Virus record (IMG/VR): IMGVR_UViG_3300034149_000104
Span: 1-28,550 of that record
Reading direction: 5' to 3' (one strand)
Origin: a virus
Lineage: Duplodnaviria; Caudoviricetes
Length of the DNA: 28,550 nucleotides
A program made the translations under genes and the position numbers. Below, piece by piece: positions 5,671 to 25,062 of the stretch. Position 1 is the first letter of the stretch. Every line of letters begins with the position of its first letter. The notes beneath the pieces are model-generated. The model saw nothing but the letters and a program-made list of their open reading frames with translations, searched no databases and was not told where the DNA came from.

Positions 5671-6152
5671 CCGACGACTACCGCTACACGCTCCACCGGC
5701 CGGTAGGGCTACGACCAGAACAGGTCCTCAGTCGGCTCTGTTGGGTGATGCTGAACCCGTCCACGGCGACCGACGACGTCGACGACCCCACCATCCGCCG
5801 CGTGATCGGGTTCACACGGCGGCTCGGATACAACTCCCTGATCGTCGTCAACCTGTTCGCCCGCCGAGCGACCCGCCCCGCACATCTCGCCGACCCCGGC
5901 GACCCGGTTGGCCCCGAGAACGATCAAGCGATCGCGTCCGCCGCCCGCACGTCCGCCGCGATCATCGCCGCCTGGGGATCGCACGGAGCGGACCGGGCCC
6001 TCGCCCCGCGACGGGCACACGTCGAGGCCCTCCTGTTCCAACAGCGCGACCGCGGGCCCGTCTTCTGTCTCGGCTACACGAAGGGCGGACAACCCCGCCA
6101 CCCGCTGTACCTCCCCGCCGACACGCCCAGAGTCCGCTACGTCCCGGCCTGA
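5667..6152 (+). CDS. DUF1643 family protein
   Basis: VMLNPSTA, DDPTIRR, NLFA-RAT, IIAAWG and PRHPLY motifs. Confidence 0.9.
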   Translation: MTDDYRYTLHRPVGLRPEQVLSRLCWVMLNPSTATDDVDDPTIRRVIGFTRRLGYNSLIVVNLFARRATRPAHLADPGDPVGPENDQAIASAARTSAAIIAAWGSHGADRALAPRRAHVEALLFQQRDRGPVFCLGYTKGGQPRHPLYLPADTPRVRYVPA

Positions 6153-6155
6153 CCG

Positions 6156-6578
6156 ATGGGACTCGCCGGGGCTCACGTCTCAACCTCCCGAGCCGGATCG
6201 CTCGGCATCATCTCGATCGACGGGCTTCCCGACATCGAAGCGCATCACGGCCGCGGCTGGCAGGCCCACTACGGCGACCGCCTCTACCGGGACCGGACCC
6301 TCGCCCGCCTCGCCCGCCAGATCAGAGACGACCTCCTCGCCGGACCGAAGACGAACCATCGGCAGACCGCCAAGAAGCGGGGCCCGGCGAAGGGGAGAGG
6401 AGCGAACCGCTACGACCGGGCCGCCCAAGTCCTCGACAAGATCAGCCAACGCAACCCCGACCACACCCATCCGCCGCTCGACGACCGGATAGGCCGCCTC
6501 GACCCCCAACCCCCGCCCCCGAACCGCTACGACCGGGCACACCCCCAACCGCCGCCACCCGATGCCGACCGCCACTAA
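6156..6578 (+). CDS. Hypothetical protein with repeated NRYDRA
   Basis: ORF fills the gap before TerL; low-complexity 3' half. Confidence 0.4.
   Translation: MGLAGAHVSTSRAGSLGIISIDGLPDIEAHHGRGWQAHYGDRLYRDRTLARLARQIRDDLLAGPKTNHRQTAKKRGPAKGRGANRYDRAAQVLDKISQRNPDHTHPPLDDRIGRLDPQPPPPNRYDRAHPQPPPPDADRH
6403..6538 (+). repeat. 19-bp exact direct repeat CGAACCGCTACGACCGGGC
   Basis: Copies at 6403-6421 and 6520-6538. Confidence 0.85.
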
Positions 6579-7617
6579 CCCCCGCACCCGTCCTGTAGTT
6601 CCTGCCGGTACACGCGCGCCCGCGCGGTTGACGCTCGCCGCCGACTGGACGACGACCCTCGACTGGATCGGGCCGGCGTTCTCGCTCCGGGAAGCGTGTC
6701 CGCCGGCTCCGGGGCTGACCTGGTGGGCTCAGGAGCCGACCCCTCGACAGCACGCCTTCCTCCTCGGCGACGAGCGGGAGCGGCTGTACGGCGGCGGGGC
6801 GGGCGGCGGGAAGTCGTCGGCGCTCCTCATGGCCGCCATGCAGTACGTCTGCGTCCCGGGCTATCAGTCGCTCCTGTTGCGGCGGACCTTCCCTCAGTTG
6901 GCGGACTCGGGCGGCCTGATCGAGCGGGCGAAGGGCTGGATGATGCCGCTCGTCGAGCAGGGCTACGCGGAGTGGCATGAGGCTCGACATCGGTACACGT
7001 TCCCGTCCGGGGCGGGCCTCTGGTTCAACTTCGCGTCGCGGAACGATGACCGCTGGAAGTTTCAGTCGTCCGAGTATCAGACGGTCGGCTTCGACGAGGT
7101 CACTCACTGGCCCGATCCGGTCGTCTACACCTATGTGGGCTTCTCCCGGGTCCGTGGCCCCGCGGTCCCCTGTCGGAACTGCGGGGAGGACGTCGAGAAG
7201 TCGACGGGCGCGTGGCGACACTCGGACGGCGACGAGGCCGACGACCGCTGCGGCGACCCTGACCCGGCCGTCGCCCTCCCGGCCTGTCCGGGCTGCGGAC
7301 TGACCCTCGCGGACGTTCCGCTTCGGACGATGGCCGGCACCAACCCGGGTGGCCGAGGTCACGGCTGGGTCAAGAAGCGGTACGGGCTCCGCCGGCTCGG
7401 CGACCGTGACCCGGAGCACATGATCCGCTACCCGAACCGTCTGTTCATCAAGGCGCTCATGGAGGACAACCCGCACCTGAACCGGCGCACCTACCGGGAG
7501 GGGCTCGCCGAGTTGGACCCCGTCGACCGGGCCCGGCTAGAGCGCGGCGACTGGGATGCGACGGAGTCGGGCCGCATGTTCTCCCGGCTCTGGATCGTCG
7601 GCGAAGAAGCGGCCTGA
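6562..7617 (+). CDS. terL: Terminase large subunit, ATPase domain only (start uncertain)
   Basis: PTPRQ, Walker A YGGGAGGGKS, LLRRTFPQL, Walker B GFDEV, TNPGGRGHGWVKKRY, DNPHL and GDWD; stops after the GRMFSRLW linker. Confidence 0.92.
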   Translation: MPTATNPRTRPVVPAGTRAPARLTLAADWTTTLDWIGPAFSLREACPPAPGLTWWAQEPTPRQHAFLLGDERERLYGGGAGGGKSSALLMAAMQYVCVPGYQSLLLRRTFPQLADSGGLIERAKGWMMPLVEQGYAEWHEARHRYTFPSGAGLWFNFASRNDDRWKFQSSEYQTVGFDEVTHWPDPVVYTYVGFSRVRGPAVPCRNCGEDVEKSTGAWRHSDGDEADDRCGDPDPAVALPACPGCGLTLADVPLRTMAGTNPGGRGHGWVKKRYGLRRLGDRDPEHMIRYPNRLFIKALMEDNPHLNRRTYREGLAELDPVDRARLERGDWDATESGRMFSRLWIVGEEAA

Positions 7618-7620
7618 CGC

Positions 7621-8029
7621 GACCGAGTCCCCTCCCACGTCTCTCGCCCGGTTGCGCTATCGGGTGCAGACGAGGTCGGGGACACGGCCGGCGCGGAGCC
7701 CGAGCCTAGACGCGAGGAGAACCCCGACCCGTCGGCCGAGGCTCTCCTGTTCGGGGCCGCCCTTGTAGGCGATGATGGCGGCCGCTGCCTGTCACTGACC
7801 CGCTCGGCCCGATCCCGCGACGCGGGCGGGCCGGCGGACTGATCCCCGAGCCGCGGTGACGTCCGGCGCTCGCAGCCCTCGGGGCCTCATGTATCCCCTC
7901 GGGTGGTTCTGCTGCTATACCGGCTCGGACGCTCGGCCTGCTCTTGACGACGTCACCCTGTCGCCCTCGGGAGGCCGGTCTCGGTCGGACCCTGTCTCGG
8001 GCGCTCCTGTCGCTCCCGGCTCCCTTGTA
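7621..8029 (-). ncRNA. Candidate large structured non-coding RNA, family unknown
   Basis: Consensus promoter upstream; no convincing ORF; at least six helices, with G-U pairs that work only on the minus strand. Confidence 0.6.
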
Positions 8030-8035
8030 AACCCC

Positions 8036-8064
8036 ATCATACGCCCCGCACTCGAGCCCGTCAA
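8036..8064 (-). promoter_or_regulatory. Strong sigma70-type promoter for the candidate ncRNA
   Basis: TTGACG(8064-8059)-17 nt-TATGAT(8041-8036). Confidence 0.8.
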
Positions 8065-8069
8065 GTGAT

Positions 8070-8099
8070 TCGGGAAGATTTCTCGGGGAATCTTTCCGA
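8070..8099. promoter_or_regulatory. Imperfect palindrome (operator or hairpin) between divergent promoters
   Basis: TCGGGAAGATTTC-tcgg-GGAATCTTTCCGA. Confidence 0.55.
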
Positions 8100-8134
8100 C
8101 GTCACCCCGAGCGGCCTGCATGTACGCTAGCGGT

Positions 8135-8446
8135 ATGGCTGCGATCCTCACTGACCGCTACCGCGAAATGGCCTCCGCCGTCCTCACCGCCGAACTGGCC
8201 GGAGTCGAACGGCTCATCGCCGACGCCCTCGCCTGGACCGATCCCCGCTACGTCGACCGGGTCCACGTCGTCGACGCCGGCCCCTTCGTCGCGCTCGACG
8301 ACCCCGAGGCCCGCTGGGCGGTCGCCTCCTGGCTCGTTCACCCCGACCGCGACCCGAACAGCCGGGCGATCTGCTCCGCTGACTTCGCGCTCGCCCTGCG
8401 CGGGCCCCGACACCCATCCGACCCTGATTGGAGCACCGGCCGATGA
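8135..8446 (+). CDS. Hypothetical protein
   Basis: TACGCT(8123)-6 nt-ATG leaderless start; ATGA overlap with next gene. Confidence 0.65.
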   Translation: MAAILTDRYREMASAVLTAELAGVERLIADALAWTDPRYVDRVHVVDAGPFVALDDPEARWAVASWLVHPDRDPNSRAICSADFALALRGPRHPSDPDWSTGR

Positions 8447-8955
8447 AGCGACTCGACGACCGCTACCGCGTGGTCCGCACCGATGGCCGCAGCGCGCCCG
8501 GCGAGAAGCACGCGGACTGCTCCTACTTCGTCCTCGACCTCACCCACGACCGCTACACGGTCCCCGCCGTGCGCGCCTACGCCGACGCTGTCCGCCTGGA
8601 ACACCCCGGCCTCGCCGCCGACCTGGACGCCCTGATCGTCGACGCCGTCTCCCGCTTCGACTTCGCGCACGCTGACGACGCCCCCGGCGGCGACCTCACC
8701 GACCCGCCCCACCGCCGCCTCGTCGCCGACGTCGCCGGCCGCGTCCTGGGCGAACTGACCGAGGACGGCCGAATCCGGCTCCTCGACGATCCGCCCGGGG
8801 CCGCGACCTGGCCCGCCGACCCGTCCGACCTCGTCTGGTCCCATGACGGGCCCATGCGGTGGTCGGACCCCGCCGCCGATCCCCCTGGCGACGTACTGGC
8901 CGTGGCTGCCGCGATGCGCGCCGCCGAGGGGACCAGGCCGCCACCCCGCGCCTAG
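8443..8955 (+). CDS. Conserved phage hypothetical protein
   Basis: YRVVRTDG...KHADCSYFVLDLTHD...AYA motif familiar from phage proteins. Confidence 0.7.
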   Translation: MKRLDDRYRVVRTDGRSAPGEKHADCSYFVLDLTHDRYTVPAVRAYADAVRLEHPGLAADLDALIVDAVSRFDFAHADDAPGGDLTDPPHRRLVADVAGRVLGELTEDGRIRLLDDPPGAATWPADPSDLVWSHDGPMRWSDPAADPPGDVLAVAAAMRAAEGTRPPPRA

Positions 8956-8964
8956 CCTCGCCCG

Positions 8965-9630
8965 GTGCTCGTCTATCACGCCGAGGTCCCCTGGCCCGAC
9001 CTCGCCGTAGTCCGAGCCTGGGACCTCGCCTCGACGAAGCCGACGAAGGCGAACCGCGACCCCGACTGGACCGCCGGGCTCCTCTACGGGGCGGCCGATG
9101 GCGAGTTCTACGTCCTCGACGTGACCCGCTTCCGGGAGACCCCGCCCGAGGGGGAGAAGCGGCTCGTCGCCGTCTCGGCCGCGGACGACGGGCTCCTGTT
9201 CCGTCGGGTCCCGATCCGAGTCGAACAGGAAGGCGGCTCCTCCGGGTCCTGGTCGATCGACGGGCTCCGGCGACGCCTGTTCGCCGGCCGCGACTTCGAT
9301 GGCGTCACCCCGAGCGCATCGAAGACCGACCGGGCCCGCCCGGTAGCGATCACCGCCTACCGCTCACATCTCCATATCCTCGACGGCCCCTGGAATGACG
9401 ACTTCCTCGACGAACTGGAACTGTTCCCCCCGGCCGCAGGCGAAGGTCACGACGATCAGGTAGACGCCCTCTCCCTCGCACACTGGTTCCTGACCGACGG
9501 CGACCGCGGCCTCTCCGGCGAGGTCGGCCCTGACGTCTCGGTCAAGGAGAACGAATGGGCCGGAGCGGGCGACGGCAGGGGCCGTCCCGGTATCGACGAT
9601 GACGCCGAGGGCGGCTGGGGGGCCCTGTAG
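8965..9630 (+). CDS. terL: Terminase large subunit, RNase H-like nuclease domain as a stand-alone gene
   Basis: RAWDLA, PDWTAG, EQEGGSSG, KTDRARP, WNDDFLDELELFP and HDDQVDA; TAGCCT-6 nt-GTG start. Confidence 0.9.
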   Translation: MLVYHAEVPWPDLAVVRAWDLASTKPTKANRDPDWTAGLLYGAADGEFYVLDVTRFRETPPEGEKRLVAVSAADDGLLFRRVPIRVEQEGGSSGSWSIDGLRRRLFAGRDFDGVTPSASKTDRARPVAITAYRSHLHILDGPWNDDFLDELELFPPAAGEGHDDQVDALSLAHWFLTDGDRGLSGEVGPDVSVKENEWAGAGDGRGRPGIDDDAEGGWGAL

Positions 9631-9641
9631 CATCCCGACTC

Positions 9642-9788
9642 ATGGCTGCTCCCGACGACTTCGACCCCGAGGCGATCCCCGAGTACCCGGGTCCCGGCGG
9701 ACCCCACGACGAGAGAGGCATGGACGTCGCCGCCGACCTTCATGCCGCGGTCGTCGCCGCCGAGGCCGCGGAGACCGAGCCCGCCTGA
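9642..9788 (+). CDS. 48-aa acidic peptide (MAAPDDFDPE...), not in the ORF track
   Basis: TAGCAT(9628)-8 nt-ATG; TGATG coupling to the endolysin. Confidence 0.55.
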   Translation: MAAPDDFDPEAIPEYPGPGGPHDERGMDVAADLHAAVVAAEAAETEPA

Positions 9789-10642
9789 TGGCCCTCTACC
9801 CGTTCGGCTACGCCGGCAACCCGCAGGGGATGGGGACGCTCCTCACGATCGAGCAGTACGACACGCTCCGCACCATCCGTCAGTTGAACTTTGAGATGTG
9901 GCGGCGCACCCGGGCGCTCATGATCTACGCCGGCTCCGTCGGAGTCCCCCTCGGCGTCGGGACCGGTTGGCGCATCCAGCCCAACCCGCCTCCCCCCGGC
10001 TTCGCGTCGCCCGGCAACTCCAACCATGAGGGCTTCCCCGCCGATGGCGTCTCCGGTGGTGCGGTCGCCGCCGATATGGTCCCCGCCCCCTCCTGGCCGT
10101 GGATGGAGGCCCACCTGGCAGCGTTCGGGCTCAGGTCGTTCCGGAACGTCAACAGCGAGCCGTGGCATATCCAGCCGTGGGAGATACCGGCATCCCGCAA
10201 CTACCGGCGGGCTCCGTGGGTCCTCGCCCCGTTCCCGCTGCCCGGCGCGCCCACCCCGCCGAACCCCGTCCACTACAACCCGGCCGCCGATCAGTGGGGC
10301 CTGTTCCCGATCGACAGGAACAAGCCGACGCTGTCGTGGCTGTCAGGATTCGCCCCGGCGGCGACCGTCGCATGGCAGCCGCAGGTCACCTACTTCAACC
10401 ATGTGCTCGTGTTCAAGTGCCGGCAGCCGATCAAGGCCCCCTATGCGGTCTACACCGGGGCCGAGCCCGACAACCCGAACACGGCGGTCGGTGAGGGCGG
10501 CTCGATCTGGGCGCAACGCAACGTCCGCAACTTCTTCGACCCGCAGAACGCGAACAGGGCCGCCGCCGAGGAGGCATGGTACGGCGTGTGCGGTCCGGCG
10601 ACGTGGGGCCTGATCGACGCGATCGCGACGAACTTCCGCTGA
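9788..10642 (+). CDS. Endolysin, M15-like Zn peptidase with C-terminal peptidoglycan-binding-like region
   Basis: GWR, ASPGNSNH, AADM and EPWHIQ motifs; C-terminal GVCGPATW. Confidence 0.8.
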   Translation: MALYPFGYAGNPQGMGTLLTIEQYDTLRTIRQLNFEMWRRTRALMIYAGSVGVPLGVGTGWRIQPNPPPPGFASPGNSNHEGFPADGVSGGAVAADMVPAPSWPWMEAHLAAFGLRSFRNVNSEPWHIQPWEIPASRNYRRAPWVLAPFPLPGAPTPPNPVHYNPAADQWGLFPIDRNKPTLSWLSGFAPAATVAWQPQVTYFNHVLVFKCRQPIKAPYAVYTGAEPDNPNTAVGEGGSIWAQRNVRNFFDPQNANRAAAEEAWYGVCGPATWGLIDAIATNFR

Positions 10643-10643
10643 C

Positions 10644-11624
10644 GTGGCCGCCCTCCCCGGGGACGTCCTCGACTGGTCCGGCTATCGGCCCTCGCAGGCC
10701 ACGCTCGACTCCATGCCGGGCCTCGGCATCGTCGGCGTCTACCGCTACCTGTCGTCGCTCGACCCCGTCGATAAGACAGCGTGGAAGGTCCTCGGCCCGG
10801 ATGAAGACGCGATGCTCGACGCCGCCGGCCTCCCTGTGTCTCTCGTCTGGGAGTTTCACGCCGACTCATGGCGGGGCGGCTTCCCCGTCGGCCGCACCTA
10901 CGGTCGGGAGGCGCGCCGGCAGGCCCGCCTCCTCGGCCGGCCCGACACGACCCCGGTAGCGCTCGCCTTCGACGACAACCTCCAACCGGGAGACCTGACC
11001 GTCGCCCTAGAACACCAGTCCGGCTACCTCGACGGTCACGGCCTCGGCCCGCAGCCGATCTACGGTCAGGCGTGGCTTATCGACGAGATGGTGAGTCGAG
11101 GCCTCGCGCCGTGGGGCTGGCAGTCGGCGTCGACCGGCTATCACGACAACGCCCGCCTCAGCCCCAACGCCCGCCTCCGGCAGCAGGTCGGATCGACGTA
11201 CCCGCTCCCCCCGAAGTCGCATGACGTCAATACCCGCTATCACCCCGACTGGGGTCAGTACCCGAAGGAGCCCGAGATGCCCGACTACTCCCTATGGCGC
11301 GACGGATCGGGGACCGTCTGGCGTGTCGCTAGCAACGCTCAGTCGAAGGTGCCGACCTCGGGGCTGGCGCTCGACGTCGATATGTTCTGGCTCGGCGCGG
11401 GCGCGCAGATCGTCGACGGGTCGGCCGCGAATCTGACCGCCTGGCTGGCGACGATCCCGAACGGGAGGGCGGCCGTCGAGAACAGCGCGGCGGCGGCGGG
11501 CGCGGCGGCGAGCGCGGCGACATCGGCGGCCGCCGCGAAGGCCGCGGCTGACGTCGCCGCGGCGCAGGCTAAGTCCGTGTCTGATCGGCTCGCCGCCGGA
11601 GTGACGCTCCGGGCGACCGCCTAG
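10644..11624 (+). CDS. DUF1906/Rv2525c-like (GH25-like) peptidoglycan hydrolase
   Basis: GVYRYLS, GLPVSLVWE, LAFDDN, IYG, WGWQS, LRQ, DVN and DWGQ; Ala-rich tail. Confidence 0.82.
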   Translation: MAALPGDVLDWSGYRPSQATLDSMPGLGIVGVYRYLSSLDPVDKTAWKVLGPDEDAMLDAAGLPVSLVWEFHADSWRGGFPVGRTYGREARRQARLLGRPDTTPVALAFDDNLQPGDLTVALEHQSGYLDGHGLGPQPIYGQAWLIDEMVSRGLAPWGWQSASTGYHDNARLSPNARLRQQVGSTYPLPPKSHDVNTRYHPDWGQYPKEPEMPDYSLWRDGSGTVWRVASNAQSKVPTSGLALDVDMFWLGAGAQIVDGSAANLTAWLATIPNGRAAVENSAAAAGAAASAATSAAAAKAAADVAAAQAKSVSDRLAAGVTLRATA

Positions 11625-12595: not shown

Positions 12596-12631
12596 GACAC
12601 GCACTCTAGCGCCGCCCCGTAATCCTGTCAA
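12593..12631 (-). promoter_or_regulatory. Class A promoter, copy 2 (leftward)
   Basis: TTGACA(12631)-17 nt-TAGAGT(12608)-7 nt-GTG. Confidence 0.8.
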
Positions 12632-20498: not shown

Positions 20499-22391
20499 AT
20501 GGCCGAGACCCCACGCACCCGAGCCGACGCCCTCCCCTGGTGGATCGCCACGGCCGCCGCCGCCCTCGTCGGGCTATCCCTCGGCGTCCTCACGCCGCTA
20601 CAGCAGACGATGGTCGTCCTCGTCGGCATCGCCCTCGCCGGGCTCGCTGTCGACGTCATCTCGCATCGGCTCCGCCCCTACGTCTCCGCTTTCGGGCTCG
20701 TCCTCGCCTGGGTCGGCGCGGCGACCCTCTCCATCCCTGTCGCCGGCCCGCTCCCCGCCGCCGCCTGCCTGATCTTCCTGACGGTCGTCATCGGCTGGCG
20801 GTCCTTCGGCTACCGCTGGCGGTGGGTCGCCGAACATGAGCAGAAGGTCGAGCATCGTCGGGCGATCCGACTGATCCGGGATCACTGGACGAAGATCGCT
20901 CACTCCGCCGGGCTCCCCCCGGAGTCGAAGATCATCGACGACCCCGAACCGACCGCGACCGGGATCGACTTCAAGGTGTCAGTCCCGGGGGACGCTCAGG
21001 CCCTCTCGTCGCGGGAGGGGACCCTCGCCTCGACGCTCGGCACCGGGAAGACGAAGGTGACGATCAAGGCCGATCCGCAGAACGCTTCGATCGCCCATAT
21101 CTCGGTCCGGACTCATGACCCGCTCGCCGAGCCTCCTAAGCCGTGGCCGTATCCCGACGTTGACTATCGGATCGCCGCCGGCCTGTCGGTCGGCATCTTG
21201 GAGACGTCCCGGCCGATCGTCCTTCACTTCATCGCCGAACACTGGCTAGTCGGCGGGATGACCCGTTCCGGTAAGACTCACGTCCTTCATATGGCCTGCG
21301 CGGCGGCCGCCGCCGCCCTCGACGCCGAACTGTGGATCATCGACACGGCGAAGCGGGGCGCGGACTTCGCCCGCTGGGAACCGGCCGCTGTCCGGTACGC
21401 GACGACCGCCCCGGAAGCGGAAGCGATGATCGAGACGCTTTACGCGACGATGGAGGCCCGCTATCACGGCCGGAAGGGCGCTCATCGGACCGGACAGTGG
21501 CGACCCTCCCCTCCCGGCTCGGCCCGCGGGGAAGGTCCGCAGATCATCCTCGTCATCGACGAAGCGGCGAACGCCGTCCGCACCGAGAAGATCAAGGCTC
21601 GGCTACAGCATCTCGCCGCCGAAGCGGCCGGCGCTGGGATCACTCTCGTCGTCGGGACTCAGTCCCCGCAGCACGCCATCTTCGACGTGAACACCCGACG
21701 GAACCTCGGAACGAAGATCGCCCTCGCCACCGACTCGGATCAGGCGTCGGACCTGATACTCGGGCAGGGGATGGCGGGGAAGGGCTACGACTGCTCGCAT
21801 CTCCCGAAGGGCGGCCATTGCTTCGTCCGTCGAGCCGGCGACAAGGTCCCGGTCCGGGCTCGGGCCTGGTGGGTCGACGACCTCGACTTCGACCGGTTCG
21901 CCCTGTCACTCCCCGAGGTCCAGCACTTCTCCCCCCATCCGTTGTACGTCGACAGGAGCGACGCGATCGACACGACCGCTACCGAGGCCGCGCCCATCGC
22001 GCTCCCGGCCCCCACGGCCCCTGGCAGGGGCCTGGACGAGGGGCCTGGACCCGGGGGCGGCGAGGGGCCTGGACCTGACGTCAGGGCCCCTCTACACGGT
22101 GGGGTTATAGGGGGTGACGGACGTGCGGAGGCCCCGAGGGGCCTGGACCTCTCCCCCGACATCTCCGCAGCCCTCGCCGGCACCGGCCTGACCTATGCCG
22201 AGGCGATCTATCGGGCCCTCCTCGACGAGCCCCTGTCGCAGACCGCGGTGGCCCGGAAGGTGGGGACATCGGACCGGACCGCCAGGAACACGCTCAACCG
22301 GCTCGCCGACGTCGGCCTAGCGAAGACCTCCGGCGGGCTGTGGGGGGCGCGGCGGTCCCTGTCGCCGAGCCGAGAGGACGTGACGGCATGA
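20499..22391 (+). CDS. FtsK/SpoIIIE family DNA translocase, TraB-like (TM-ATPase-wHTH)
   Basis: Four N-terminal TMs; HWLVGGMTRSGKT (Walker A), LVIDEAA (Walker B), GTQSP; C-terminal LSQTAVARKVGTSDRTARNTLNRL HTH. Confidence 0.88.
   Translation: MAETPRTRADALPWWIATAAAALVGLSLGVLTPLQQTMVVLVGIALAGLAVDVISHRLRPYVSAFGLVLAWVGAATLSIPVAGPLPAAACLIFLTVVIGWRSFGYRWRWVAEHEQKVEHRRAIRLIRDHWTKIAHSAGLPPESKIIDDPEPTATGIDFKVSVPGDAQALSSREGTLASTLGTGKTKVTIKADPQNASIAHISVRTHDPLAEPPKPWPYPDVDYRIAAGLSVGILETSRPIVLHFIAEHWLVGGMTRSGKTHVLHMACAAAAAALDAELWIIDTAKRGADFARWEPAAVRYATTAPEAEAMIETLYATMEARYHGRKGAHRTGQWRPSPPGSARGEGPQIILVIDEAANAVRTEKIKARLQHLAAEAAGAGITLVVGTQSPQHAIFDVNTRRNLGTKIALATDSDQASDLILGQGMAGKGYDCSHLPKGGHCFVRRAGDKVPVRARAWWVDDLDFDRFALSLPEVQHFSPHPLYVDRSDAIDTTATEAAPIALPAPTAPGRGLDEGPGPGGGEGPGPDVRAPLHGGVIGGDGRAEAPRGLDLSPDISAALAGTGLTYAEAIYRALLDEPLSQTAVARKVGTSDRTARNTLNRLADVGLAKTSGGLWGARRSLSPSREDVTA
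22026..22149 (+). repeat. 12-bp direct repeat AGGGGCCTGGAC, four copies (clt-like)
   Basis: Copies at 22026, 22039, 22063 and 22137. Confidence 0.85.
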
Positions 22392-23184: not shown

Positions 23185-23641
23185 CCCGAATGGCGTCGTG
23201 ACAGACGCGGAGAGGGCCGCCGTACTCGCGCAGGCCGCCCCGGCGAGGTCGACGCTCCCGCCCGGCCGTGCGCTCCTCCGGATCGCCGTCACCTTCGCCG
23301 CCGTCGCGGTGATCCTCTCGCAGATCGCTCAGATTCAGACCTCGCATGCCCGAGGCGAACAGGTGAGCGACCTCCGCGAAGTAGTCGAGCGGCTCCGAAG
23401 CCGCGTCGACCTCCTCGACGCGGAACTTGGCTGCCGGTCGGTCATCTCCGGAGACCTCGACGTCGCTCAGGGCCGAGCCCTAGAGACGATCCTCCGGGGG
23501 CTCGGCGCGATCGCCGTCGCTGACCGGCCGACCGTCGCGGCGCTCGGCGACGAGGCCGGGGTGCTCGCCGACTCGATCGACGCCGCCGTGGCCGCCCGGA
23601 TAGCGGCGGTCGCCACCTGTAGCGAAGGGAGCACGCCATGA
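23177..23641 (+). CDS. Membrane-anchored coiled-coil protein
   Basis: One TM helix, two Cys; coupled to the portal gene. Confidence 0.6.
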   Translation: MTDPNGVVTDAERAAVLAQAAPARSTLPPGRALLRIAVTFAAVAVILSQIAQIQTSHARGEQVSDLREVVERLRSRVDLLDAELGCRSVISGDLDVAQGRALETILRGLGAIAVADRPTVAALGDEAGVLADSIDAAVAARIAAVATCSEGSTP

Positions 23642-25062
23642 CCGACGAGGTTGACCTCGATCACTTCGACCCGGCCGTACCGATCGGCTCCTACGGGCTC
23701 CACCGCTACGGCGGAACGATCGTCGAGGAGTTCCTCCCCGAACTACAGGGCGACGCCGGTCGCCGCGTCTTCCGGGAGATGTCGGAGAACGACCCCGTCG
23801 TAGGGGCGATGCTCCTCGCCGTCGAACTGTCGATCCGGCAGATCGAATGGCAGATCGAACCGGCGCATGACCTCGGCGACGACGTCGAGCCGTCGGCCCG
23901 GGCGGCCGAGGTCGCGCAACAGGTCGGGTCCTGCCTTCACGATATGGAGCAGACCTGGCCGGACGTCATCTCCGAAGCGTTGGAGATGCTCCCCTACGGC
24001 TGGGCGTGGTCGGAGGTCACCTACAAGCGGCGGCGCGGTGATCAGCCTCTCGGCGGGCCGGCCTCGTCGATCTATGACGATGGCTGGTGGGGCTGGGCGT
24101 CGATCGCGTCTCGGTCTCAGTCGTCGCTACAGGAGTGGCTCTACGGGGAGGACCAGCGGACCCTCGTCGGGATGCGCCAGTACGTCACCGAGACCGGCGA
24201 GATAGTCGACATTCCGCTGGCGAAGTCGCTTCACTTCCGGACGTCGGCCCGCCGCGGGAACCCGGAGGGTCGCTCCCTCCTCCGCTCCGCCTATCGGCCG
24301 TGGTTCTTCAAGCGGCGGATCGAGGAGTACGAAGCGATCGGGATAGAACGTGACCTCGCCGGGCTCCCGATGGCGACCGTCCCCGACACGATGCTAGGGG
24401 CCGACGCGTCGGCGGCGGAGAAGGCGACCGTCGCCAATATCAGGAAGACCGTCCGGCTCGTCCGCCGAAATGAGACCGACGGGCTCCTCTGGCCGTCGTC
24501 CTACGACGCCGCCGGAAATCAGCGGTACACCTTCGGGCTTCTCACGTCCGGCGGAACCCGACAGTTCGACACGGACAAGGTCATCTCTCGCTACGACCAG
24601 CGGATAGCGATGACGACCCTCGCGGACTTCATCCTCCTCGGGCATGAGGGGGTCGGGACCGGGCTCGGCGTGTCGCTCGCCGGGACGAAGGTCGACCTGT
24701 TCACCGCCGGCCTAGAAGCGTGGGTCGATATGATCGCCGCGCAGTTCAATGACCGGGCGATCCCGACGCTCTGCCGGCTGAACGGGATCACGGACCGGAA
24801 TCTCTGTCCGACCCTGTCGCATGGCGAGGTTCGGGCGGTCGACCTGGCGACCCTCGGGAAGTTCCTGACGGACATCTCCGGGTCGGGTGCTCCTCTGTTC
24901 CCGGATGAGGGGCTCCTCGCCGAGTTGATGCGGCGGGCTGACCTTCCGGTCCCGGACGCTCAGGCCGTCGACGAGGGCGGCTCCGGCGGCGGGCCGGGGG
25001 CGGCTGGGGTGATCCCGGAGGGGGACGCCGCGGAGAGTGACGAGGTCACGACCGGCGAGTAG
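23638..25062 (+). CDS. Phage portal protein (DUF935-like)
   Basis: EEFLPELQG, REMSENDPVVGA, GNPEGRSLLRSAYRPWFFK, EAIGIERDLAGLP and ISRYDQRIA. Confidence 0.9.
   Translation: MTDEVDLDHFDPAVPIGSYGLHRYGGTIVEEFLPELQGDAGRRVFREMSENDPVVGAMLLAVELSIRQIEWQIEPAHDLGDDVEPSARAAEVAQQVGSCLHDMEQTWPDVISEALEMLPYGWAWSEVTYKRRRGDQPLGGPASSIYDDGWWGWASIASRSQSSLQEWLYGEDQRTLVGMRQYVTETGEIVDIPLAKSLHFRTSARRGNPEGRSLLRSAYRPWFFKRRIEEYEAIGIERDLAGLPMATVPDTMLGADASAAEKATVANIRKTVRLVRRNETDGLLWPSSYDAAGNQRYTFGLLTSGGTRQFDTDKVISRYDQRIAMTTLADFILLGHEGVGTGLGVSLAGTKVDLFTAGLEAWVDMIAAQFNDRAIPTLCRLNGITDRNLCPTLSHGEVRAVDLATLGKFLTDISGSGAPLFPDEGLLAELMRRADLPVPDAQAVDEGGSGGGPGAAGVIPEGDAAESDEVTTGE

Follow-up and report, generated by a model that had tools for sequence, protein, structure and literature searches.

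The large terminase gene (terL) of an uncultured sediment phage was examined in the virus record IMGVR_UViG_3300034149_000104 (G000), a linear sequence of 28,550 bases with a G+C content of approximately 71% and a CheckV completeness estimate of 27%; this entire record is referred to below as the window. In contrast to the canonical one-chain TerL, which holds both domains in one polypeptide, the window carries an ATPase gene that closes with a stop codon at 7615-7617 and, after a gap of 1347 nt, a nuclease gene (Table 1). The gap consists of 517 nt without a credible open reading frame (ORF), followed by ORFs 8135-8446 and 8443-8955. An initial annotation made without database searches (the sequence-only reading) had described the two domains as separate genes that keep their catalytic motifs on either side of a gap of about 1.35 kb holding two ORFs, and this description was upheld.

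ORF 6562-7617 matched Terminase_6N (E = 1.2e-7) and aligned to positions 152-421 of phrog_979, as does the N-terminal P-loop ATPase of a large terminase; the encoded protein ends in GDWDATESGRMFSRLWIVGEEAA. ORF 8965-9630 (RAWDLA...HDDQVDA) matched Terminase_6C (E = 4.5e-14) and aligned to positions 434-603, so that two intact ORFs tile one TerL profile. Profile searches and synteny, suggested as checks by the sequence-only reading, both agreed with it: terminase profiles matched each half, and the gene order was the same in related loci. Single-protein and profile sequence searches of the PDB returned nothing significant, and structural matches came from fold searches alone. The AlphaFold2 model of the lone ATPase (predicted template modelling score, pTM, of 0.81) had TerL of D6E (5oea) as its best Foldseek match (E = 1.2e-8) and also resembled TerL of Sf6 and P74-26.

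The catalytic motifs were conserved both in the aligned ATPase-only proteins and in the stand-alone nucleases. The names Walker A, Walker B and coupling motif in Table 1 are those that we take to apply to the ATPase motifs. In the window nuclease the residues D20, E89 and H162-D167 are intact, and they were invariant across 7 stand-alone nucleases. These acidic catalytic residues are those of an RNase H-type nuclease, a fold that was seen in the model of the fused relative P0020, to which the window nuclease is 47% identical from P0020 residue 284 onwards.

Misassembly, named by the sequence-only reading as a way in which the split could prove false, was not borne out, since contigs from other runs cross the gap. 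Eight DNA runs were examined of the 24 listed. One X3 contig covers 5500-9907 and one X2 contig covers 5500-9017, with flat depth; a contig covering 5500-10398 came from X1, which is possibly the source sample and was left out of the count. Listings of joints in these 8 runs included none that would fuse the halves; the three joints that were listed have sides of 21-24 letters, and none connects the halves.

Table 1. Coordinates of features in and around the two terL genes of the window.
Feature	Position	Strand	Basis or remark
TerL ATPase gene, 351 aa	6562..7617	+	PF03237; phrog_979 152-421; AlphaFold2; Foldseek
Walker A GGGAGGGKS, residues 77-85	6790..6816	+	G77, G78, G81, G83, K84 and S85 each kept in 90% or more of 20 aligned ATPase-only proteins
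Walker B D178-E179	7093..7098	+	Invariant in 20 aligned ATPase-only proteins
Cys-rich insert CxxC...C...CxxC	7171..7296	+	C242 and C245 each kept in 90% or more of rows; first part absent in 6 of 20 rows
Coupling motif TNPGG	7339..7353	+	N261, P262 and G263 invariant in 20 aligned ATPase-only proteins
C-terminal tail GRMFSRLWIVGEEAA, then stop	7570..7617	+	First ~10 nuclease-domain residues plus terminal Ala-Ala; predicted docking peptide, possible degron
Non-coding stretch downstream of leftward promoter; candidate RNA convergent on ATPase 3' end	7618..8035	-	Coding score below 0 in all six frames
Sigma-70-type promoter TTGACG-17-TATGAT	8036..8064	-	Single match in 6000-10000, against a mean of 0.1 in shuffles
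Palindrome between divergent promoters, putatively operator-like	8070..8099		Sequence
TACGCT, 6 nt before ATG 8135; leaderless-type -10 for cargo ORFs	8123..8128	+	Sequence
Cargo ORF 1, 103 aa	8135..8446	+	Coding-like codon score; no Pfam match, no family
Cargo ORF 2, 170 aa	8443..8955	+	N-terminal part matches phrog_9572, E 1.3e-14 (scanned from 8428); coding-like
TAGCCT, -10-like hexamer	8953..8958	+	Contains TAG stop of cargo ORF 2; 6 nt upstream of GTG 8965
TerL RNase H-type nuclease gene, 221 aa, GTG start, ends GWGAL	8965..9630	+	PF17289; phrog_979 434-603
Rv2525c-like endolysin, gene block after nuclease	10644..11624	+	PF08924, phrog_13480
Mu-like portal protein	23638..25062	+	PF06074, phrog_113; 46-49% identical in G001 and G002

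Split and fused relatives

Counts of ATPase homologues rest on the best 120 listed. Twenty of these, including all of the top 15 and the window's own protein, were ATPase-only, and a profile search, likewise with 120 matches listed, did not extend the ATPase-only set. Together with the protein of locus L009 they made up 21 ATPase-only proteins, 39-80% identical to that of the window. All except one stop 5-9 residues past the W of an F-x-R-x-W motif, the remaining one stopping 20 residues past it, and the F, R and W were invariant in all 19 distinct tails. On the nuclease side, 6 stand-alone proteins besides the window's begin at the window start site or within 1 residue of it, and P0252, P0253, P0258 and P0318 look like further examples. 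Stand-alone nucleases often share an end of their own, WG[AS]x, which was found in 6 of the 8 distinct ones.

The ATPase stop was seen in the DNA of three species. On the 65.5-kb contig of L009/L020 the halves lie 7.0 kb apart, and in the provirus L124/L178 they lie 3.5 kb apart; in both, the order and strand are those of the window and the cargo is different. The ATPase stop of L124 overlaps the GTG of the next gene. Among near-identical copies, 9 of the 10 distinct single-nucleotide polymorphisms (SNPs) listed in the halves were synonymous, versus 25% expected for random changes; E132V was the lone non-synonymous one, and a further change, R207G, was seen at the protein level only.

Scans with the family motif recovered 53 loci on viral contigs (3 split, from 2 species, 48 fused and 2 truncated) and 10 in metagenomes (3 of the window's species, 1 split and the same as L124, 2 fused, 2 truncated and 2 unrelated). 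Single-protein searches for related loci gave mostly fused, distant TerL. The scan of genome contigs yielded 19 loci, of which 1 had a fused terL and the other 18 lacked the gene; as no split terL was among them, no host can be named. The host is inferred to be actinobacterial from the G+C content, the leaderless-type promoters, the Rv2525c-like endolysin and the Gordonia phage neighbours.

Trees drew on 70 of the 164 fused rows, and later on 22-31. The ATPase tree placed 20 of the 21 split proteins within the CVPGY-type TerL, where they form one group of 14 and another of 6, interspersed with a few fused rows. The remaining one, P0096, has the same cut site and lies apart, with a Gordonia-phage-like branch; its placement suggests that it is probably an independent split. 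With P0096 left out, a single origin for the 20 split ATPases was not rejected (approximately unbiased test, p = 0.44), and at least 3 changes were counted in the tree. In the nuclease tree, 10 of 11 split nucleases formed one supported branch (100/99) together with 4 fused proteins. The nuclease domains of the fused P0020, P0029, P0251 and P0255 (and P0052) group with the split nucleases, and P0029 ends in WGGL and P0052 in WGAIT, as do many split nucleases; these fused proteins would be either re-fusions or sisters of the split ones, and natural controls. The Cys-rich insert, predicted from its residues to bind metal, sits after Walker B, and its CxxC at 242-245 is retained in both split and fused CVPGY-type TerL.

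The nearest cultured sequences were those of Gordonia phages and psiM2 (ATPase up to 46% and nuclease 44-45% identical). TerL of the Gordonia phages ChisanaKitsune, Chidiebere and DalanDe and of psiM2 belongs to phrog_979 and has the same motifs as the window pair, in a single polypeptide. The folds were the same, by model comparison, as those of the solved TerL of D6E (5oea, 5oe8), P74-26 (4znl, 5tge), Sf6 gp2 (4idh, 5c12), the G20c nuclease (5m1q) and T4 gp17 (3cpe), which differ from the window pair in having a covalent hinge and share 9-17% identity.

The sequence-only reading held that known TerL interruptions are mostly introns or inteins, and in this it overlooked a precedent: in most cluster AY Arthrobacter phages the two TerL domains are encoded by separate consecutive genes, as stated in two short reports (PMC11920828, PMC12820723). 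In Auxilium (GenBank MH834598) gp2 and gp3 are annotated as the TerL ATPase and nuclease domains and overlap by 32 nt. The cultured cluster AY phages Auxilium, BillyTP and BlueShadow are thus like the window in having separate genes for ATPase and nuclease, and by analogy would provide a viable precedent for a two-gene TerL. Their TerL belongs to phrog_9, without a significant BLASTP match to either window half, and coming from another family it represents an independent split. The cluster AY genes lie between TerS and portal, whereas in the window group 1.35-7.0 kb separate the halves, and the portal is distant from them; the window thus has neither consecutive TerL genes beside the portal nor a phrog_9 sequence. 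Rescue by frameshifting is conceivable where the genes overlap, and distance rules it out for the window group. The ATPase of Auxilium ends in SA, not AA. At its C-terminus Auxilium gp2 (L179 599-1678) likewise has a short tail rich in Trp, WLRDGLW, which may be an analogous nuclease arm.

The literature was searched for split or two-gene terminases and for separated T4 domains, and no direct report was found except for the cluster AY papers; the available portions of PMC7824862, PMC9915841 and PMC12628072 added nothing on splits. A two-gene TerL is therefore already known, and what is new here is the distance between the halves, the predicted cut within a domain and the Ala-Ala end, although none of the literature searches was directed at a degron on a terminase. 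When the domains of T4 gp17 are expressed separately they reportedly keep their own activities and do not package when mixed.

Position of the cut and interpretation of the split

Residues 341-351 of the lone ATPase model had per-residue confidence (pLDDT) values of 36-47, and the matching block of the fused P0020 model, residues 281-290, had a pLDDT of 97. Solved nuclease domains (G20c, P74-26, Sf6, P22, SPP1, RB49 and E217) aligned to the P0020 model from residues 270-275 (Z of 14-17, root-mean-square deviation of about 3 Å, 156-166 residues aligned), and solved ATPase domains ended at residues 269-275. The window ATPase reaches the equivalent of W281-F282 and the nuclease aligns from 284, which maps the cut to 282-284; hence no part of TerL is missing, and the cut falls outside the hinge. 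The sequence-only reading had placed the stop at the usual inter-domain linker, and the model of the fused relative instead puts the predicted cut approximately 10 residues inside the nuclease domain. Since the ATPase retains this part of the nuclease domain, its tail probably re-docks on the nuclease. Prediction of a complex of the halves gave a score of 0.53 compared to 0.00 for the best control, with a contact agreement between runs of at least 57% and a partner pLDDT of at least 72, which lends weak support to binding of the nuclease by the ATPase.

An Ala-Ala end was found in 14 of the 21 ATPase-only proteins, across several branches; the AA-bearing rows are related, so that this count overstates their independence. 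As background, AA terminates 6 of the 251 open frames at these loci (with overlapping loci counted). Of the 48 genes called in the window, none of the other 47 ends in AA, although a single terminal A occurs in 12. An exposed terminal Ala-Ala is a feature of ClpXP substrates with a C-terminal degron, and the window ATPase shares it as judged from its sequence, its low-pLDDT tail and the recurrence of the end. In Streptomyces sigma-AntA a terminal Ala-Ala drives ClpXP degradation, and the Ala-Ala end is conserved in 67 of 71 proteins there versus 14 of 21 here (PMC7142297). In E. coli the terminal Ala-Ala is described as necessary and not sufficient (PMC10862746). The sigma-AntA degron was shown biochemically; by analogy the Ala-Ala end of the ATPase is a possible ClpXP degron.

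The terL gene is split into two genes 1.35 kb apart, and we consider it likely that their proteins re-assemble non-covalently, through the retained tail, into a working motor. The ATPase would carry a G-x-x-F-x-R-x-W anchor and the nuclease would start at the next beta-strand; by fragment complementation, the nuclease would take the anchor back into the pocket that it formerly occupied. Fission would have freed the halves, after which cargo genes may have moved in and the nuclease gene may have reached its place immediately before the lysis genes, where a leaderless transcript of its own is possible; more speculatively, the terminal Ala-Ala could let host ClpXP remove undocked ATPase. The two-chain motor proposed by the sequence-only reading therefore stands as far as the two conserved separate genes are concerned, and the joining of their products into one motor is likely, with weak support from the complex prediction. 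It is possible, if doubtful, that a peptide latch from the N-terminal arm of the nuclease joins the motor, that nuclease binding hides a ClpXP degron, that the protease thereby sets the stoichiometry and that the late, lysis-linked nuclease gene times the start of packaging.

Several observations weigh against re-assembly or narrow its basis. The complex score lies in a band, 0.60 or less, that holds only 18 of 157 solved complexes but both of the passing mismatches, split-gene halves can pass the complex test through likeness to solved full-length TerL, and complex prediction of the halves also returned no interface. The R of F-x-R-x-W was present in 12 of 41 fused CVPGY junctions versus 51 of 59 other fused junctions (38 fused rows off the junction pattern were dropped); as the motif is common in fused TerL too, its conservation alone is no proof of docking in trans. 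The AA end is absent in 7 of the 21 ATPase-only proteins, including that of provirus L124, which ends in FA. At the nuclease start, which follows a TAG by 4 nt in L124 and by 0 nt in L009, neither locus has a TAGCCT-like motif. DNA context for the split was available from three species (the window, L009/L020 and L124/L178), the remaining proteins being without context, and the window is an estimated 27% of its genome.

An alternative that we regard as unlikely is that both genes are functional without a stable complex, the ATPase pumping alone and the nuclease being recruited briefly by TerS, DNA or the portal to cut. The separate location of the nuclease gene, possibly with a separate promoter, would fit this, as would the weakness of the predicted binding and the conserved WG[AS]x end of the split nucleases, which could bind another partner; against it, the cut takes away part of the nuclease N-terminal arm, which in the fused model is ordered only beside the nuclease. 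Rejoining of the halves into a one-chain TerL at the RNA, DNA or protein level, by a group I or II intron, an excised element, a ribosome hop or a split intein, is very improbable. It has precedents in the group I introns of KASIA terL (PMC8541194), the inteins of Mic1 TerL (PMC7156551) and a split-intein terminase (PMC2677866), and a structured non-coding stretch does come after the ATPase stop. That stretch (7618-8035), however, folds better on the opposite strand (fold z of -2.3 on the minus and -0.5 on the plus strand). Rfam gave 0 matches at gathering score in the whole window, and at E values up to 5 the 7400-9100 region gave 3 chance matches far below the gathering score; there was thus no match to an intron RNA between the halves. 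Pfam detected no intein domain in either half, only 7 residues follow W344, and the alignment of the nuclease with fused TerL begins at residue 2. The gap is not conserved, ranging from 1.35 to 7.0 kb and being filled with unrelated genes in relatives, and the overlap of the L124 ATPase stop with the next GTG also speaks against rejoining, as do the absence of joined contigs from the 8 DNA runs and the continued alignment of the stops and starts of the halves. No convincing junction repeats that would mark an excised element were found; TCGTC, shared by both junction ends, was considered as an excision mark and rejected, as it is not conserved in L124 or L009.

There is little to recommend the view that the halves are decaying remnants beside an intact terL in the portion of the genome that the window lacks. 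The incompleteness of the window and the closeness of fused relatives in the trees would allow it, but the catalytic residues are invariant across proteins that are 39-80% identical, the listed SNPs are nearly all synonymous, and a profile of 45 fused TerL found only the two halves, and no second terL, in each of three records (27%, 78% and 40% complete), the 78% complete one being G001. An artefact of assembly or gene calling can be given almost no weight. Many ATPase-only proteins do derive from short contigs, yet random truncation would not place 20 of 21 ends within 5 residues of each other, the stop is present in the DNA of three species, and for the window locus the X2 and X3 contigs that span the gap refute it.

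If the preferred reading of a re-assembled two-chain motor holds, the pair bears on how packaging force is produced. In one model of T4 packaging, two covalently hinged domains move like a piston (PMC8589836). Halves that lie kilobases apart, alongside fused relatives that are 45-50% identical, offer a direct test of whether force generation requires the covalent hinge or the hinge serves only as a tether, and the pair is small (39 and 24 kDa) and can be expressed. Should the Ala-Ala end be a degron, a packaging motor would be under proteolytic control. Annotation pipelines that expect one terL miss or mislabel the split group; JGI labels several of the ATPases 'hypothetical protein'.

The intervening DNA and neighbouring genes

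The sequence-only reading had assigned the nuclease gene its own -10-like TAGCCT. Its position 6 nt before the GTG was confirmed, whereas as a promoter it is weakened by its overlap with the stop of ORF 8443-8955 and its absence from the nuclease starts of both relatives. TANNNT followed after 5-7 nt by ATG or GTG occurred at 16 sites in the window compared to 7.3 ± 2.3 in 100 shuffles (maximum 14), by our reading mostly at gene starts; given this enrichment, TAGCCT at 8953 fits the leaderless-type pattern of the phage. Alternatively, TACGCT at 8123 may give rise to a transcript in which the nuclease gene comes third. Separately regulated cutting, as proposed by the sequence-only reading, is plausible.

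The TACGCT element and the leftward promoter point apart across the palindrome at 8070-8099. As judged from its position, the strong leftward promoter (8064-8036) would drive transcription of some 420 nt of modestly structured non-coding sequence towards the 3' end of the ATPase gene, giving a possible antisense or small RNA. No counterpart of the non-coding stretch was found in L009 or L124. Elsewhere in the window, six near-identical promoters, T[TA]GAC[AG]-17-TAGAGT, were located at 306, 12631 (minus strand), 12654, 14922, 18219 and 25080. Each is preceded by CGC and mostly followed after 7 nt by a start codon (leaderless), and the pair at 12631 and 12654 is divergent; by their likeness the six are likely to form one early regulon. 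ARAGORN returned 0 matches on the window.

A cell-wall hydrolase gene follows the nuclease within 2 kb in L124 and L009, as well as in the window. Between nuclease and endolysin in the window lies a 284-aa ORF (9788-10642) without a Pfam or PHROG match; it has H...D and E-x-W-H residues that in our view resemble those of an M15-type peptidase, and it may be a second lysin. The portal gene is 14-17 kb from both terL halves, and the interval holds lysis and early-type genes. A TerS was not identified in the window, where there was a weak phrog_4102 match at 55-300 (E = 0.0026). An FtsK/HerA-like ATPase with a C-terminal helix-turn-helix is encoded at 20499-22391 in the window and at 4974-6683 in L009, and L124 has a far shorter version, consisting of the two ends only, at approximately 9375-9719. 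In the provirus L183, a long MuF-containing frame (6171-9005) has a weak C-terminal match to an ADP-ribosyltransferase (E = 4.7e-4, far below the cut-off) and is possibly a MuF-linked enzyme domain.

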